Shown in pieces: positions 1 to 4,928 of a DNA stretch of 4,928 nt; positions within the stretch are counted from its first letter, which is position 1, and every line of letters starts with the position of its first letter. Below the pieces are notes generated by a model that saw only the letters and a list, made by a program, of their open reading frames with translations, did no database searches and was not told where the DNA came from. The stretch comes from a virus: UHGV virus genome UHGV-2078699. One strand, written 5' to 3'. The translations under genes and the position numbers were made by a program.

Positions 1-23
1 GGATTCGATTTTCGCAGCGGCCT

Positions 24-56
24 TTTCAACATAACGAGTCGTACATTATGCGCACC
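24..56 (-). other. dif-like XerC/XerD recombination site (putative prophage attachment junction), atypical spacing
   Basis: The minus strand reads GGTGCGCATAA-TGTACGACTCG-TTATGTTGAAA. The first 11 nt are identical to the XerC arm of E. coli dif (GGTGCGCATAATGTATATTATGTTAAAT, recalled from memory). The last 11 nt match the XerD arm TTATGTTAAAT at 9 of 11 positions. The two arms are separated by 11 nt rather than the canonical 6. Confidence 0.4.
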
Positions 57-94
57 AATGGTAAGGATGGCGGGAACTGGCGTTACCGGTGCCG

Positions 95-328
95 TCATTG
101 GTCACAGACCGTAATCCACTGGCCCAGGACGTCTTTCAGGCAATGTTGGCATAAATCCAGTTTTAAGCGATTACTGTCACCAAAAATTGAACCGTATCCA
201 GCTAAGTGATTAACAGACAGAAACTCATTGAACTCAATGTCATCTACCACCGTCTTCGCATGGCGACCACAGCGATCGCAGGTCTTCGCACATAACATTA
301 CAGTATCGCTGGATGTGAAAAATTGCAT
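95..328 (-). CDS. hypothetical small Cys-rich protein, zinc-ribbon-like (77 aa)
   Basis: ORF with ATG at 328..326 preceded by a strong SD (GAGGAGA, 5-nt spacer). The protein has C13-x3-C17-x2-C20 and C61-x2-C64 plus C75, i.e. two CxxC knuckles about 40 residues apart, typical of a zinc ribbon. A loose resemblance to YgiT/MqsA-type zinc-finger domains is from memory only. Confidence 0.5.
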   Translation of the reverse strand: MQFFTSSDTVMLCAKTCDRCGRHAKTVVDDIEFNEFLSVNHLAGYGSIFGDSNRLKLDLCQHCLKDVLGQWITVCDQ

Positions 329-399
329 TTTATCTCCTCGTAATGCTGCCGCGCCGAATCAGCAATAACGCTAAAAAAACAGAATTGTTCGGCTTGGCC

Positions 400-444
400 A
401 ACCCCTGACACTAACAAAAGCAAGTTTTGTCATTGTCAGGGGTT
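400..444. promoter_or_regulatory. 45-nt near-perfect inverted repeat (stem-loop) between the two small ORFs
   Basis: AACCCCTGACA (400..410) pairs with TGTCAGGGGTT (434..444), and ACAAAA (414..419) pairs with TTTTGT (425..430), around a 5-nt loop GCAAG with a 3-nt internal mismatch. On the minus strand it sits 1 nt after the ORF 446..754 stop codon. A T7 run follows about 20 nt further downstream, so it is not a canonical intrinsic terminator. Confidence 0.5.
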
Positions 445-445
445 A

Positions 446-754
446 TCATATAAACCAATAGACCGTCCTTACGCCATTCTGGTTATCAATAACATAGCCG
501 CATTGTTTCCTTAAAAATTCTTCTGCTAAATCAATGGCTTTTACAGAAATCTCATAAGAAGGAAGTAAAGTGTATCCTTTCCCTTCACTGGCAGCTGCTT
601 TGATCGCATCCAGAGTATTATCAATCAGTAACAGAGCAAGTGATGCTTCATTTACCTGAGCCGAAGAACTTCTGGCTGCAAGTGTCATTGTTTTTGCTTC
701 TTCCGCTGTAATCGTTCGTTCTGCCAGAGCAGATAAAATCCCATAAGAATCCAT
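446..754 (-). CDS. hypothetical protein (102 aa), unknown function
   Basis: ORF with ATG at 754..752 and a GGGG-containing SD 7 nt upstream. The protein is Ala/Leu-rich and helical-looking at the N-terminus with a beta-like C-terminus, and has no recognisable signal peptide or TM segment. I recognise no family. Confidence 0.45.
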   Translation of the reverse strand: MDSYGILSALAERTITAEEAKTMTLAARSSSAQVNEASLALLLIDNTLDAIKAAASEGKGYTLLPSYEISVKAIDLAEEFLRKQCGYVIDNQNGVRTVYWFI

Positions 755-774
755 TAGTTACCCCAATCAATAAT

Positions 775-834
775 GTCCATTTGATGGATAGCGAGCAGGG
801 CTTACGCACCTACCCGCTATCCATCAAAGTGGAC
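775..834. promoter_or_regulatory. long hairpin overlapping the gene IV stop codon (candidate terminator / packaging-signal-like element)
   Basis: GTCCATTTGATGGATAGCG (775..793) pairs with CGCTATCCATCAAAGTGGAC (815..834), giving a 19-bp stem with one bulged G and a 21-nt loop. The gene IV stop codon (824..826) lies inside the right arm. In Ff phages the packaging-signal hairpin begins immediately after gene IV. Confidence 0.45.
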
Positions 835-2089
835 GAATGATATGTGCTGTAAGCAAAATATACATAATACGCTGTTCATTGCTGTCTGCCTTGCTACTGA
901 AAATCCAGCCTATAAGAGGAATTTTACTTATAACTGGAACTGAACGCTCGGCATTGCTGAACGATGAATCGATAAGCCCCCCCAATAACAACGTCTGACC
1001 ATCCTTAATCTGGACTGTCGTCTGAATCTGGCGCTGATTAGTAATAATATCGGATGCCTGATCATCATTGCTGATTGAATCAGCGCGAGTGTCGATAGTC
1101 AGAACTAGTTGCCCGTTACCCATGACAACAGGCGTTACCTTGAGAGAAACGCCAACATCATGACGCTCGATAGTCTGAAACGGATTATTTACCCCGGCAG
1201 ATTCGCCCGTTACCTTTCCGGTGATAAACGGCACATTCTTACCTACGGAAATGTAACCAGTCTGACCAGACTGAGTAAGAATACGCGGCGTTGAAATCAC
1301 CTTAGAGCGTGAATTACTCTGGACAGCACGCAGAGACAGCGCCAACACGTTACCATCAAAAATACCAAAAGAACCGCCCGCCGTAGAAAGAGCGCTACCC
1401 AGTGCAGAAGTATTAAAGCCCCCCGCAACCTTATGACCGGATGCAGAACCTGCCGCAAACGATAAATCAACGCCATCAGACAAGCTGGTTTCAAACATCA
1501 GCGACTGAATGAGAACCTGATCGCGGGCAACATCCACAGAATTGATAAAATCGGACAGAACCGGCAGCAGCTCGTCAGGCGCAGAAACAATCAGCGAGTT
1601 ATTGCCTGGATAATCCACGACATTACCACCACCATTAGAATCAAGATAAATTTTAATCAGTTGCTGAACATCGGACGATCTAACTTTTGTCAGCTTAAAA
1701 TTTCTGACCGTAAGCGCCACAGGTACTGGCTGGTAAGATGGCTCAGAAGGAAAAGTATCATAAGACTGGTTATCAGAATCATCGGAATCCGAAACCATCT
1801 GTGAAGGTAATTTAGACGGCAAAGAGACTACCGCAGGATTGCCAGAAAGCATGACAAAACCGTTAGCATTCAGAACAGACTTAAAGAAATCATCAATATT
1901 TGTTGGATTAACATCAGCATTAAATACGGTTACGTTTCCTTTAATATCAGGATTAACAATAACAGGCTTGCCAGTTTTTGAAGAATACCACTGAACAAAT
2001 GAGCGAACAGATGAATTATTTAAATTAACAGTTTCAGCAGAAACGCAGAATGAATAGGCAAATAAAAAAGCAACAATAACAGAGCGCAT
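824..2089 (-). CDS. gIV: filamentous-phage gene IV protein (pIV outer-membrane secretin)
   Basis: The translation aligns along its length with M13/fd pIV as recalled, e.g. VPFITGxVTGESAxVNNPFQTIER, DGQTLLLGGL, IPLIG..FSS and a C-terminal ...RPL. The ATG at 2089..2087 is preceded by AGGAG and gives an N-terminal signal peptide MRSVIVAFLFAYSFCVSA. The 31 codons the ORF track adds upstream (to 2182) overlap the gene I 3' end and are rejected as the start. Confidence 0.92.
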   Translation of the reverse strand: MRSVIVAFLFAYSFCVSAETVNLNNSSVRSFVQWYSSKTGKPVIVNPDIKGNVTVFNADVNPTNIDDFFKSVLNANGFVMLSGNPAVVSLPSKLPSQMVSDSDDSDNQSYDTFPSEPSYQPVPVALTVRNFKLTKVRSSDVQQLIKIYLDSNGGGNVVDYPGNNSLIVSAPDELLPVLSDFINSVDVARDQVLIQSLMFETSLSDGVDLSFAAGSASGHKVAGGFNTSALGSALSTAGGSFGIFDGNVLALSLRAVQSNSRSKVISTPRILTQSGQTGYISVGKNVPFITGKVTGESAGVNNPFQTIERHDVGVSLKVTPVVMGNGQLVLTIDTRADSISNDDQASDIITNQRQIQTTVQIKDGQTLLLGGLIDSSFSNAERSVPVISKIPLIGWIFSSKADSNEQRIMYILLTAHIIRPL

Positions 2090-2096
2090 AATAATA

Positions 2097-2471
2097 TTAC
2101 TCCTGACAGGTAACAGTCTGTAAATAACGGCCTTTTCTAATAACAACACGACAGGCATCTTTAATATCAACGGAATAACCATCTTTAATCAAATCAAAAT
2201 ACTGATATTTCATACCTTTTGCATCAACAAACGTAACGGAAACGTCAAAGCCAAGTTGTGAAAAAGAATTAATAGAAAGTCGGGGTAAGTCACTGGACGA
2301 ATCAGGCGTTACCGCCCTCGCCTGTTCAGCATAAGCAGATTTAATAGCTGAGATTTCATCAACATTCTTTCCAGACTGGAGCCAGAAACCAAACGCAAGC
2401 CCCAGCGCCAAAAAAGAAAGCATTAATATAAGACGGTTCGATTTGCGAAAATAAATTTTAGTGAGGCGCAT
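2097..2471 (-). CDS. gXI: putative gene XI protein (pXI / pI*), in-frame internal start within gene I
   Basis: An in-frame ATG at 2471..2469 is codon 241 of gene I, the same residue index as the pXI start in M13 as recalled (MKLTKIY there, MRLTKIYF here). It lies just N-terminal to the TM segment, with an AGAGGA SD-like element about 12 nt upstream. Confidence 0.5.
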   Translation of the reverse strand: MRLTKIYFRKSNRLILMLSFLALGLAFGFWLQSGKNVDEISAIKSAYAEQARAVTPDSSSDLPRLSINSFSQLGFDVSVTFVDAKGMKYQYFDLIKDGYSVDIKDACRVVIRKGRYLQTVTCQE

Positions 2472-3191
2472 ATAATAATTAAATCCTCTGTGAACAGAAA
2501 ATTGACCGTGCGTGATAAATGGTGGCAAAAGCGAAAATGCGCCATGAGGATAATTATCTGTGAACGCTTGTTTGGTATTGTAAGCAGAATAAAGAGATTT
2601 TCCTGTATATATCCATTTATCAACAGTGATTGAATTAACATTATCACCATATTTGACAATGCCAAAGTGTACCTTTGGTAAAGAAAATCTCGCTCCTGAA
2701 ACCAAATTCATAATGGAGCCAACAAAAGGAATGTTTAATTTATCTGAACGGCGACAATAAACAACATGCTCAGCAAGCGCCAGACGAGCTTGCTTATCCA
2801 TTATCGAAATATCCTGAATCAAAAATATAATATCCCAGCCTAATTTTCTGGCATGTAAAAACCAGTCAATAACAGGTTGTCTGTCTTTATCACCCCATGA
2901 GCGGGAATTAAACCAAGTACCACATTCATCAAGTACAAGGAGGCCATTACGGGATTCATCGTAAGATGTATTCCCAATACCAATAGCAAGTAAATCATTT
3001 AATGAAGGCTTGTCAGGAATGCGAATAACGCGCGTTTTTTTCGCATAACGCCCAACCATAGGCATATTATGCAATTTAAGATCAAGATTAGTGGCAACAG
3101 GACAACCCTTAGCAAGTCTTTCCTGTATTCTGGAAACACTAACAAGTGTCTTGCCTGAGCCTAATTTGCCTGTTACTACATAAACCGCCAT
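2097..3191 (-). CDS. gI: filamentous-phage gene I protein (pI assembly ATPase, Zot-like)
   Basis: N-terminus MAVYVVTGKLGSGKTLVSV with Walker A GKLGSGKT and Walker B-like LLVLDECGTWF. Roughly 70% identity by eye to M13 pI as recalled (IDWFLHARKLGWDIIFL, ALAEHVVYCRR). A single TM segment LILMLSFLALGLAFGFWL lies near residue 255. The ATG at 3191..3189 directly follows the gene VI stop (TAAATG), with SD AGGGTGA. Confidence 0.95.
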   Translation of the reverse strand: MAVYVVTGKLGSGKTLVSVSRIQERLAKGCPVATNLDLKLHNMPMVGRYAKKTRVIRIPDKPSLNDLLAIGIGNTSYDESRNGLLVLDECGTWFNSRSWGDKDRQPVIDWFLHARKLGWDIIFLIQDISIMDKQARLALAEHVVYCRRSDKLNIPFVGSIMNLVSGARFSLPKVHFGIVKYGDNVNSITVDKWIYTGKSLYSAYNTKQAFTDNYPHGAFSLLPPFITHGQFSVHRGFNYYMRLTKIYFRKSNRLILMLSFLALGLAFGFWLQSGKNVDEISAIKSAYAEQARAVTPDSSSDLPRLSINSFSQLGFDVSVTFVDAKGMKYQYFDLIKDGYSVDIKDACRVVIRKGRYLQTVTCQE

Positions 3192-3533
3192 TTAAATCAC
3201 CCTGTTTGCATAATCAAGAAATTTTTGTTTTAAATCGAAAACAAAAACACTGATACGAGTAACCATAATAACGTTAACACACGCCTGAAAATGGTCAGGC
3301 AGTACAGACGCCATTAAATGGGAGAAATCAGCAGGTAAACCGTTGTACATGACCTCAGCAAGGTACTGCATTAAAAGCGTAACAGTTGTTGTAATTAATG
3401 CGACCAATGCAAAGGCGATTAATCCTGTTCTGGTAGCAAGTCGAGCTAAAAAACTCGCCACATAGCCAATAAACAAAGGAACAAGACCAATAAGAAAACG
3501 CAACAATGCAGGAATACCTAATAATAAAGGCAT
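3192..3533 (-). CDS. gVI: filamentous-phage gene VI protein (pVI minor coat protein)
   Basis: 113-aa hydrophobic protein MPLLLGIPALLRFL...FVFDLKQK, matching M13 pVI (MPVLLGIPLLLRFL...IFIFDVKQK, recalled). The ATG at 3533..3531 shares one nucleotide with the gene III stop (TGATG). The ORF track starts one codon earlier at a GTG, which I do not favour. Confidence 0.88.
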   Translation of the reverse strand: MPLLLGIPALLRFLIGLVPLFIGYVASFLARLATRTGLIAFALVALITTTVTLLMQYLAEVMYNGLPADFSHLMASVLPDHFQACVNVIMVTRISVFVFDLKQKFLDYANRVI

Positions 3534-4067
3534 CACTCACCCCCTTTGCGAAGCAATGAAGTTAAAGAAGTAAAGACATACCAGAACGTAAGGCAATAAA
3601 AAACCCATGAAAGAACATCTTTAATAGTCAGTAATTTATCGCAACCAATATCAATCTGATAAACCTCTCCGGGAAAAATAATAAAATCAGAGCAGCCGTT
3701 ACCATTGGGTAAATTAGGCAGCATAGCACCTTTATTTAAAAATGCTTCCCATAAAGCACCGTGAGAATCCTTTTCAATTCCCAATTCAGAATCAGCTAAA
3801 GTAGAAGCGCCATCTAATTCAGAGTCGCCCTTTCCATAACGAGAATCACCACCTGAAGGGTCAGCAAAACGGCCAGCCCCCCGCGTAAGATTGTTAATGG
3901 AATCGTCAAGACGATTTATATTATTCCTGGTTTGTTCATCGGCATTTTTTTTATCATCTGATGAAGTGTCTTTCTCCGTTAATTTATCATGAATATCGCT
4001 GGCTATTTTGGGTGAAGCACCTTCGATCGCAGACTGAATATCACCTTTAGAAAGACTGGAACCACTA
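3533..4067 (-). pseudogene. gIII: gene III (pIII) C-terminal fragment, interrupted by IS630 insertion
   Basis: The C-terminal roughly 175 codons resemble the pIII linker and C-terminal domain (NGNG, IDIGCDK vs M13 SIDCDK, hydrophobic anchor YVFTSL, terminal LLRKGGE vs ILRNKES). Upstream of about 4068 the frame continues into antisense IS630 sequence and the N1/N2 receptor-binding domains are absent. The 5' boundary is approximate, about 5 nt either way. Confidence 0.8.
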
Positions 4068-4928
4068 AATAGCTGCGCGGAATAGTAGATCACTGAAAGG
4101 GAACTCAGCCCGGATTGTGCGATCTGATCAATCGCCAAACCAACCAAAATCACCAACCGGACTGAGCGATGCCGATCATAGTACCAATACCCCGTGGCGA
4201 ACGACGCCTGATGCAGAAAGCTATTCATAAAACGCGTGATAAAAATCATGCCCGCAGACTCACGGCCATGCTGATGCTTCATCGGGGTGAACGGGTCAGC
4301 GATGTTGCCAGAACTCTCTGTTGTGCCCGTTCATCCGTTGGTCGCTGGATTAACTGGTTTACGCACTCAGGTATTGAAGGCCTGAAATCCTTACCCGCAG
4401 GGCGCTCCCGACGCTGGCCTTTTGAACATATCTGCACCCTGTTACGTGAGCTGATAAAGCATTCTCCCGGCGATTTTGGTTATCAACGTTCACGCTGGAG
4501 CACCGAATTACTGGCAATAAAAATCAATGAGATAACCGGTTGCCAGTTACATGCAGGAACCGTTCGCCGCTGGTTGCCATCTGCGGGGCTTGTATGGCGC
4601 AGGGCCGCGCCAACTCTGCGTATCCGTGACCCACATAAAGATGAAAAGATGGCGGTAATCCACAAAGCGCTGGATGAATGCAGCGCAGAGCATCCGGTAT
4701 TTTATGAAGATGAAGTGGATATCCACCTTAATCCTAAAATCGGTGCGGACTGGCAGTTGCGCGGACAGCAGAAACGGGTAGTGACGCCGGGGCAGAACGA
4801 AAAATACTATCTGGCCGGCGCACTGCACAGTGGCACGGGTAAAGTCAGCTACGTGGGCGGCAACAGCAAAAGTTCAGCGCTGTTTATCGCTCTGCTGAAG
4901 CACCTGAAAGCCACTTACCGGCGGGCGA
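4068..4928 (+). mobile_element. IS630-family insertion sequence, left end and most of transposase (partial; continues beyond window)
   Basis: The sequence encodes a transposase matching IS630 as I recall it. GC content rises sharply relative to the AT-rich phage genes (sampled 60-nt lines are about 33% GC in gene IV and about 70% in the transposase). The left boundary is placed after a CTA at 4065..4067, consistent with IS630 inserting at CTAG with TA duplication. The exact inverted-repeat end is not verified. Confidence 0.8.
4169..4928 (+). CDS. IS630-family transposase (Tc1/mariner-like DDE), 3' truncated by the window edge
   Basis: Plus-strand frame open from the ATG at 4169 to the end of the window (253 codons): MPIIVPIPRGERRLMQKAIHKTRDKNHARRLTAMLMLHRGERVSDVARTLCCARSSVGRWINWF (N-terminal HTH) ... 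DPHKDEKMAVIHKALDECSAEHPVFYEDEVDIHLNPKIGADWQLRGQQKRVVTPGQNEKYYLAGALHSGTGKVSYVGG. It is missing from the supplied ORF track, presumably because no stop codon falls inside the window. Confidence 0.9.
   Translation, partial: MPIIVPIPRGERRLMQKAIHKTRDKNHARRLTAMLMLHRGERVSDVARTLCCARSSVGRWINWFTHSGIEGLKSLPAGRSRRWPFEHICTLLRELIKHSPGDFGYQRSRWSTELLAIKINEITGCQLHAGTVRRWLPSAGLVWRRAAPTLRIRDPHKDEKMAVIHKALDECSAEHPVFYEDEVDIHLNPKIGADWQLRGQQKRVVTPGQNEKYYLAGALHSGTGKVSYVGGNSKSSALFIALLKHLKATYRRA

Follow-up and report, generated by a model that had tools for sequence, protein, structure and literature searches.

Results

Gene content of the window and assignment of the prophage

The window analysed here (the whole stretch of DNA, 4,928 nt in length) consists of a series of filamentous phage genes, all of which lie on the minus strand, and of the left part of an insertion sequence (IS) carrying a plus-strand transposase gene. 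The phage part begins with two small open reading frames (ORFs) without a family assignment, encoding 77 aa (95-328, minus strand) and 102 aa (446-754, minus strand). They are followed by gene IV for the secretin (824..2089, minus strand; 421 aa from the annotated start; PF00263, PF21305 and PF03958), gene I for the Zot-type assembly ATPase (2097..3191, minus strand; 364 aa; PF05707, E 6e-41), gene VI for a DUF5455 protein (3192..3533, minus strand; 113 aa from the ATG at 3533; PF17537, E 6.7e-9), and the 3' part of gene III (3533..4066, minus strand). The 77-aa ORF product shows no similarity to the 91-aa ECs_2282-family protein encoded by a related metagenome contig described below, both proteins being small and possessing a zinc motif.

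The genes IV, I, VI and III share 67-69% nucleotide identity with those of phages IKe, I2-2 and Erwinia PEar. Much closer relatives, 99-100% identical prophages, are held by 49 complete Escherichia coli genomes, in which the gene after gene VI is annotated as 'attachment protein'. The prophage of E. coli 1368KP, whose gene III is uninterrupted, occurs there in two or more tandem copies and is 100% identical to positions 1-4067 of the window (0 differences in 4067 nt). The genes VI, I and IV, which the original prediction had described as intact, are uninterrupted and show 100% DNA identity to their counterparts in the 1368KP prophage, where gene VI carries the same annotation.

The last 1368KP copy abuts host DNA next to hipBA. 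Positions 46-59 of the window (ACATTATGCGCACC) correspond to the XerC-arm half of dif, which maps near hipA in E. coli. Only this half is conserved: a search of the analysed loci for the complete 28-bp dif of E. coli, with up to 3 mismatches allowed, gave no match, and dif is likewise stated not to be repeated in full in UPphi prophages (PMC7307601). Positions 1-59 as a whole are equivalent to the phage-end segment that adjoins host DNA near hipA in 1368KP. In the window, this segment is joined to the start of the phage unit, from which it follows that more phage DNA adjoins this copy, in a tandem array or a circle. The UPphi viruses (UPphi901 group; Shapiro & Putonti 2020) are IKe/I2-2-like phages that integrate at dif, usually as tandem copies (PMC7307601), and on the basis of its gene sequences and end segment the host phage is assigned to this IKe/I2-2-like, dif-integrating UPphi group, the assignment being one of group-level membership.

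The insertion sequence ISEc33 and its transposase

The right-hand 861 nt of the window (4068..4928, plus strand) represent the left portion of ISEc33, a member of the IS630 family, the remainder of which lies beyond the window end. The start of the element, fixed by script, is position 4068, where it reads AATAGCTGCGCGG..., 101 nt 5' of the transposase ATG. Over all 861 nt, there are 0 mismatches to a complete ISEc33 copy in another E. coli genome (L002, positions 1507-2659). This complete copy has flanks CTA...TAG and a length of 1153 bp, in agreement with the approximately 1.15 kb anticipated for the inserted element. Its right end, TATTAGGCGCAGCTATT, pairs with the left terminal inverted repeat of the window element, AATAGCTGCGCGGAATA (4068..4084, plus strand).

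About 105 E. coli records hold copies with 99% identity or more, annotated as 'IS630-like element ISEc33 family transposase'. Window positions 3400-4928 matched about 150 E. coli records at this level, and these matches all carry that annotation and begin at 4060-4064. ISEc33 is multicopy in some E. coli genomes, with up to 10 places per genome, and CTA precedes 25 of the 25 listed copies. Because the IS630-family copies that are commoner in E. coli reach only about 83-88% identity to the window element, the latter is, as judged by sequence identity, ISEc33 rather than IS630 in the strict sense. The label 'IS630' given to it previously therefore holds for the family and not for the element itself.

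The ISEc33 transposase gene is translated from position 4169 (4169..4928, plus strand), antisense to gene III, and runs past the window end, exactly as had been predicted; the window contains the first 253 of its 343 codons. This fragment scores 156.7 bits against the NCBIfam model of the IS630 family transposase, NF033545 (cut-off 100, E 8.5e-46), and matches Pfam helix-turn-helix domains. The match to DDE_3 covers the first 77 of 146 profile positions only, with 26.5 bits versus a cut-off of 28.6. The complete 343-codon transposase ORF is present in the identical full-length L002 copy, the annotated coding sequence of which starts at the equivalent base. In its NF033545 match, its inverted repeats, its length of 1153 bp (the family range being approximately 1.1-1.2 kb) and the TA duplication at CTAG described below, the element displays traits of the IS630 family.

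The gene III remnant and its uninterrupted allele

The 3' part of gene III comprises 177 codons and a stop codon (SGSSLSKGD...RKGGE), close to the roughly 175 C-terminal codons of pIII originally recognised. Since the C domain of the attachment protein (g3p) has no family in Pfam or NCBIfam, it was identified by BLASTP to IKe g3p, residues 260-432 of which align with 174 residues of the remnant at 53% identity (E 5e-65), the anchor ...VLSWVFYCLTFWYVFTSLTSLLRKG included. The remnant extends from the end of the Gly/Ser linker through the C domain to the C-terminal membrane anchor, and has neither a start codon nor a signal peptide of its own. Its DNA shows 100% identity to the corresponding 3' part in E. 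coli 1368KP, where the attachment protein gene is uninterrupted.

The uninterrupted 1368KP gene is 1218 nt long and encodes 405 aa, 50% identical to IKe g3p over the full length. The N-terminal domains of the encoded protein match the IKe structures 4eo0 (pilus-binding) and 4eo1 (TolA-binding), and the Pfam families PF21443 (E 7e-26) and PF05357 (E 3e-6) are detected in the N-terminal part of g3p both in this allele and in the metagenome contig described below. A signal peptide is predicted by alignment to the annotated signal peptide of IKe g3p.

Upstream of the remnant, the gene III frame remains open for another 72 codons (4067..4282, minus strand), which consist of the TA junction codon and antisense IS sequence and extend to an ATG at 4282. 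The antisense IS sequence into which the pIII frame was said to run is thus the remaining N-terminal part of the 249-aa chimeric ORF found in the ORF list (3533..4282, minus strand), which represents gene III only over 3533-4066. The product of this ORF has no family match, and the ORF is probably not a real fusion gene. A crude consensus scan, a weak negative by its nature, detected no promoter-like site at the IS end or close to it from which the gene III 3' part could be transcribed. At the other end of the remnant, the start of gene VI overlaps the stop codon of gene III (TGATG at 3531-3535), and because of this overlap translation of gene VI may be coupled to that of gene III.

The target site and the two junctions

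Comparison with the uninterrupted allele, which reads GGCTCTAGTGGT / CTCTAGTG at the insertion point, identified CTAG as the target. Within gene III it lies at nt 683-686, in the Gly/Ser-linker codons S228/S229. Up to ...GGAACCACTA the window agrees with the uninterrupted gene, which from there goes on with GAGCC.... Alignment of the two alleles places the left copy of the duplicated target TA at 4066..4067, directly adjoining the IS end at 4068, so that the left end of the element is defined to the base. CTAG is the preferred target of IS630, and it is rare in this phage, with 5 sites in the 8311 nt of the phage unit versus 583 TA dinucleotides counted in the unit as extracted. With one such site in the gene III linker, the insertion provides a clean natural case of CTAG targeting by the IS630 family.

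The window ends 292 nt before the right end of the IS, and the right junction was observed on a second sequence, the ENA metagenome contig ERZ27238691 k111_8714 (8756 bp; hereafter L003), which may or may not be an independent sample. L003 was the one contig found by a look-up of the 249-aa chimeric ORF. It is 100% identical to window positions 1-4405, including 338 nt of the IS. In L003, 338 nt of the IS left end and TA are followed by the 3' part of gene III, by VI, I and IV, and by the small ORFs; genes II, V and VIII come next, and after the 5' part of gene III there are TA and 105 nt that belong to the IS right end. The replication and coat genes (II, V, VIII) are uninterrupted, and the packaging-signal hairpin is present. 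A gene caller did predict the 249-aa chimera on this contig.

The gene III 5' part (L003 positions 7967-8656) contains the signal peptide, the PF21443 pilus-binding domain, the PF05357 TolA-binding domain and the Gly-rich linker. It encodes 228 native residues followed by a lysine and a stop codon (..GGGSK-stop), the frame terminating at TCT AAA TAG within the IS end after one IS-derived codon. The second copy of the target TA is located at L003 8650-8651, and the IS right end adjoining the gene III 5' part is the same as in the complete ISEc33 copy. The two junctions accordingly read CTA + IS in the window and IS + TAG in L003, and in silico excision of the IS together with one TA yields a 1218-nt gene III identical to the 1368KP gene. 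The original prediction, that an IS630-family insertion splits an inovirus gene III, is thereby borne out: L003 shows the right IS end, a duplicated TA at CTAG and the 5' part of gene III with its signal peptide and N-terminal domains, and the transposase similarity is confirmed by the NF033545 match. The receptor-binding half of gene III has been separated from the anchoring half by a precise IS630-family event.

Since the window stops inside the IS, we extrapolate the right junction of its source from L003. Beyond the window, we would expect 292 nt more of ISEc33 (4929-5220), TA at 5221-5222, and then GAGCCACCGCCAGAAC..., the antisense sequence of the gene III 5' part; read from 5221, the same right side would follow the IS right end as TA + GAGCCACCGCC....

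No record spanning both the phage and the IS parts was found among 5426 complete E. coli genomes, and the exact left and right junction sequences had no match in a one-genome-per-species set, the JGI metagenomes and the IMG/VR viral contigs. The insertion allele is rare, L003 being the one contig found to share the junction. L003 crosses the phage-phage att junction and enters the IS at both of its ends, and it branches neither into host DNA nor into an uninterrupted gene III. Argued from the behaviour of assemblers, this lack of branching is a hint that, in the L003 sample, the IS allele is dominant, and so is the phage-phage junction.

Discussion

Origin and age of the split gene

The explanation that we consider highly probable is that ISEc33 transposed into the gene III linker of a UPphi-type E. 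coli prophage and split the gene. In this event, the 1153-bp element, which encodes a Tc1/mariner-type DDE transposase, would have inserted into CTAG at the linker codons S228/S229 and duplicated the central TA. Chance can be dismissed as the source of the underlying matches, as their E-values are far below chance expectation and the DNA identities are 100%. Judged by sequence divergence, the insertion is very recent, because neither the phage DNA nor the IS has diverged from the uninterrupted prophage or from other copies of the element.

A different history of the window's source has to be weighed, in which the insertion was followed by a deletion or rearrangement, and the 5' part of gene III was lost and not just separated. 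IS elements can mediate adjacent deletions, and the window ends inside the IS with the right junction beyond view. However, in L003, which is identical over the 4405 shared bases, the 5' part is complete and lies directly beside the right IS end, and we regard such a loss as very unlikely.

The original prediction had left the choice between a recent inactivation and a domestication of the export machinery, in which genes VI, I and IV were kept by selection as an export machine after the loss of gene III. These genes are indeed uninterrupted, but at the DNA level they match, with 100% identity, those of prophages whose gene III is uninterrupted, and the IS does not differ from other copies; with phage genes and IS both undiverged, there has been no time for selection to act. 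The intactness of VI, I and IV consequently needs no selective explanation. Furthermore, genes II, V and VIII are also uninterrupted in L003, which retains the packaging-signal hairpin, and the allele is rare, being found in one contig only. Of the two possibilities, recent inactivation agrees with the 0 substitutions and the identical IS, and domestication, which is unsupported, appears extremely unlikely.

A misjoin made in assembly, with gene III really uninterrupted, is a further reading, for which the multicopy nature of ISEc33 (up to 10 places in some genomes) and the absence of the junction from the 5426 complete E. coli genomes and three large contig collections would speak. Its probability is practically negligible, as the separately assembled L003 has both junctions with the precise TA duplication at CTAG that is the signature of IS630-family transposition, and the two gene III halves rejoin to the base.

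Transposition of ISEc33 into the prophage gene is, on this evidence, an ordinary gene disruption by a mobile element, in which both partners, ISEc33 and a UPphi prophage, are known and the mechanism is textbook. The new allele adds nothing conceptually and matters little beyond annotation. In annotation, gene III should be described as a pseudogene interrupted by ISEc33 in this UPphi copy, and the 249-aa chimera should not be called a protein.

Predicted consequences for the phage

The consequences of the split can be predicted from the biology of the Ff phages. In Ff, Gly-rich linkers connect the N1-N2 domains of pIII with the C domain, a lack of pIII lowers the infectivity of the phage about 10^6-fold, and both pIII and pVI are needed for assembly termination and virion release (PMC10175506). 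The Ff C domain can support assembly, since a pIII mutant with an internal deletion has its assembly defect complemented by it, and it does not support infectivity (PMC10175506). By analogy, this copy would provide no virion-anchored receptor-binding protein, and any particles would lack infectivity. Assembly termination and release would fail too, as these steps need the membrane-inserted C domain together with pVI. Gene VI, the start of which overlaps the gene III stop, might in addition be under-expressed by polarity. On the Ff model, this copy would be expected to yield no infectious, released particles.

The term 'defective' may nevertheless apply to this copy only, given that UPphi prophages usually occur in tandem and that more phage DNA adjoins window positions 1-59; if another copy of the array retained an uninterrupted gene III, it could complement the loss. 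We consider it unlikely that the IS-bearing phage genome is not a dead end, that is, that it is still replicating and possibly spreading. On this reading, the unbranched structure of L003 would suggest a multicopy circular replicative form, or else a long tandem array with ISEc33 in every copy. With pIII supplied in trans, the 9.46-kb genome could then be packaged, as the length of a filamentous capsid is not strictly limited, and ISEc33 could be moved between cells.

The 5' part of the split gene might affect the host as well. In Ff, periplasmic N1 makes cells 10^4-fold less sensitive to phage uptake and alters the deoxycholate and colicin A phenotypes (PMC10424213). An anchorless N-terminal fragment from the split gene, if made, would resemble periplasmic N1; a further reading, which we regard as unlikely, is that the secreted fragment could block TolA or the pili and exclude related phages. 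If the strain were available, the split gene would represent a natural test of the effect that an anchorless, secreted N-terminal fragment of g3p has on its host.

Comparison with known systems

Compared with ISEc33 as known from other E. coli genomes, the window element has the same left inverted repeat, transposase start and TA duplication at CTAG; there is no difference within the element, and only the insertion site is new. The two fragments of gene III resemble laboratory truncations of Ff gene III: the 5' fragment is the counterpart of an anchorless, secreted N1 or N1-N2 fragment, and the 3' fragment that of a C-domain-only pIII. The Ff constructs, however, were engineered with promoters and signal peptides, whereas the 3' fragment here has neither.

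With the UPphi prophages, the phage shares core genes like those of IKe and I2-2, a dif-like site, tandem integration next to hipBA at the terminus, extra small ORFs between genes IV and II, and a variable Gly-rich linker in g3p. It differs from them in that gene III of this copy is interrupted by an IS. Damage to gene III is mentioned in the text of the UPphi description for only one phage, which has an early stop codon, and the words 'insertion sequence' and 'transposase' are absent from that text (PMC7307601). The parts of the uninterrupted allele are arranged as in IKe g3p (signal peptide, pilus-binding domain, TolA-binding domain, Gly-rich linker, and C domain with anchor), with a shorter linker. 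In the copy analysed here, this arrangement is split at the end of the linker, which leaves the receptor-binding part and the anchoring part in separate reading frames at a distance of 1.15 kb.

Attachment junction and copy arrangement

The region of interest (window 40-67) includes the segment ACATTATGCGCACC (window 46-59), which is the half of E. coli dif that carries the XerC arm. At window 59/60 phage sequence is joined to phage sequence, while this 59-nt segment (window 1-59) adjoins host DNA beside hipA at position 15729 of L001, the E. coli 1368KP locus with tandem UPphi-type prophage copies. Taken together, these two junctions place the copy in the window in a tandem array or a circle.

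The metagenome contig identical to window 1-4405 (L003, ERZ27238691 k111_8714) also traverses the att junction without a break. Its ends lie in the insertion sequence ISEc33, with 338 nt of IS sequence on one side (1-338) and only 105 nt on the other (8652-8756). In a k=111 assembly, such unequal IS extents and an unbroken crossing of the att site are unusual when the IS is multicopy and the prophage integrated. The structure of the contig may mean that the IS-bearing unit is present in many copies, or that the sample holds other partial copies of the IS.

Possible recombination in gene III and between phages

Gene III (L001 10533-11750) is mosaic across E. coli genomes: BLAST matches in other genomes break off at nt 539-553, in the Gly-rich linker, and the gene is between 1203 and 1331 nt long. 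This linker looks like a hot spot of recombination and expansion. The IS insertion also falls in this linker.

The two halves of the metagenome contig differ in their identity to 1368KP. The part from the 3' portion of gene III to the att site (L003 339-4454) is ~100% identical, whereas the part from gene II to the 5' portion of gene III (5225-8651) shows only 99.1% identity, with 30 mismatches, despite gene III itself being identical in both phages. This unevenness suggests recombination between related UPphi phages.

The accessory modules of these otherwise near-identical phages are unlike: a 159-aa protein and a 91-aa zinc-binding protein of the ECs_2282 family are encoded in the contig (L003 4447-5201), whereas a PD-(D/E)XK nuclease and a DUF6953 protein occupy the same place in 1368KP (L001 5885-6956).

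Gene starts, small genes and hairpins

Two starts are at issue for gene IV (window 2089-2182). The mechanically called ORF (452 aa, beginning at window 2182) shares 86 nt with gene I, whereas the start that related genomes have annotated lies at window 2089 and yields 421 aa. The first-ATG rule has probably produced the longer ORF as an artefact.

Two small ORFs on the minus strand, one of 77 aa with CxxC motifs (window 95-328) and one of 102 aa (446-754), matched no family in Pfam and NCBIfam. They probably correspond to the genes that PMC7307601 mentions as UPphi-specific and of unknown function; in the filamentous phage IKe, the corresponding place is intergenic. Between them lies a strong hairpin with 20-nt arms (window 396-444; z -7.3), which could serve as a terminator or be related to an origin.

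A further hairpin, a long one (window 776-834, minus strand; DNA fold -24.5 kcal/mol, z -8.7) directly follows the gene IV stop. The apical part, CGGGTAGGTGCG..AGCCCTGC, also occurs in the morphogenetic (packaging) signal annotated for IKe. This hairpin, which is complete, is likely to be the packaging signal.
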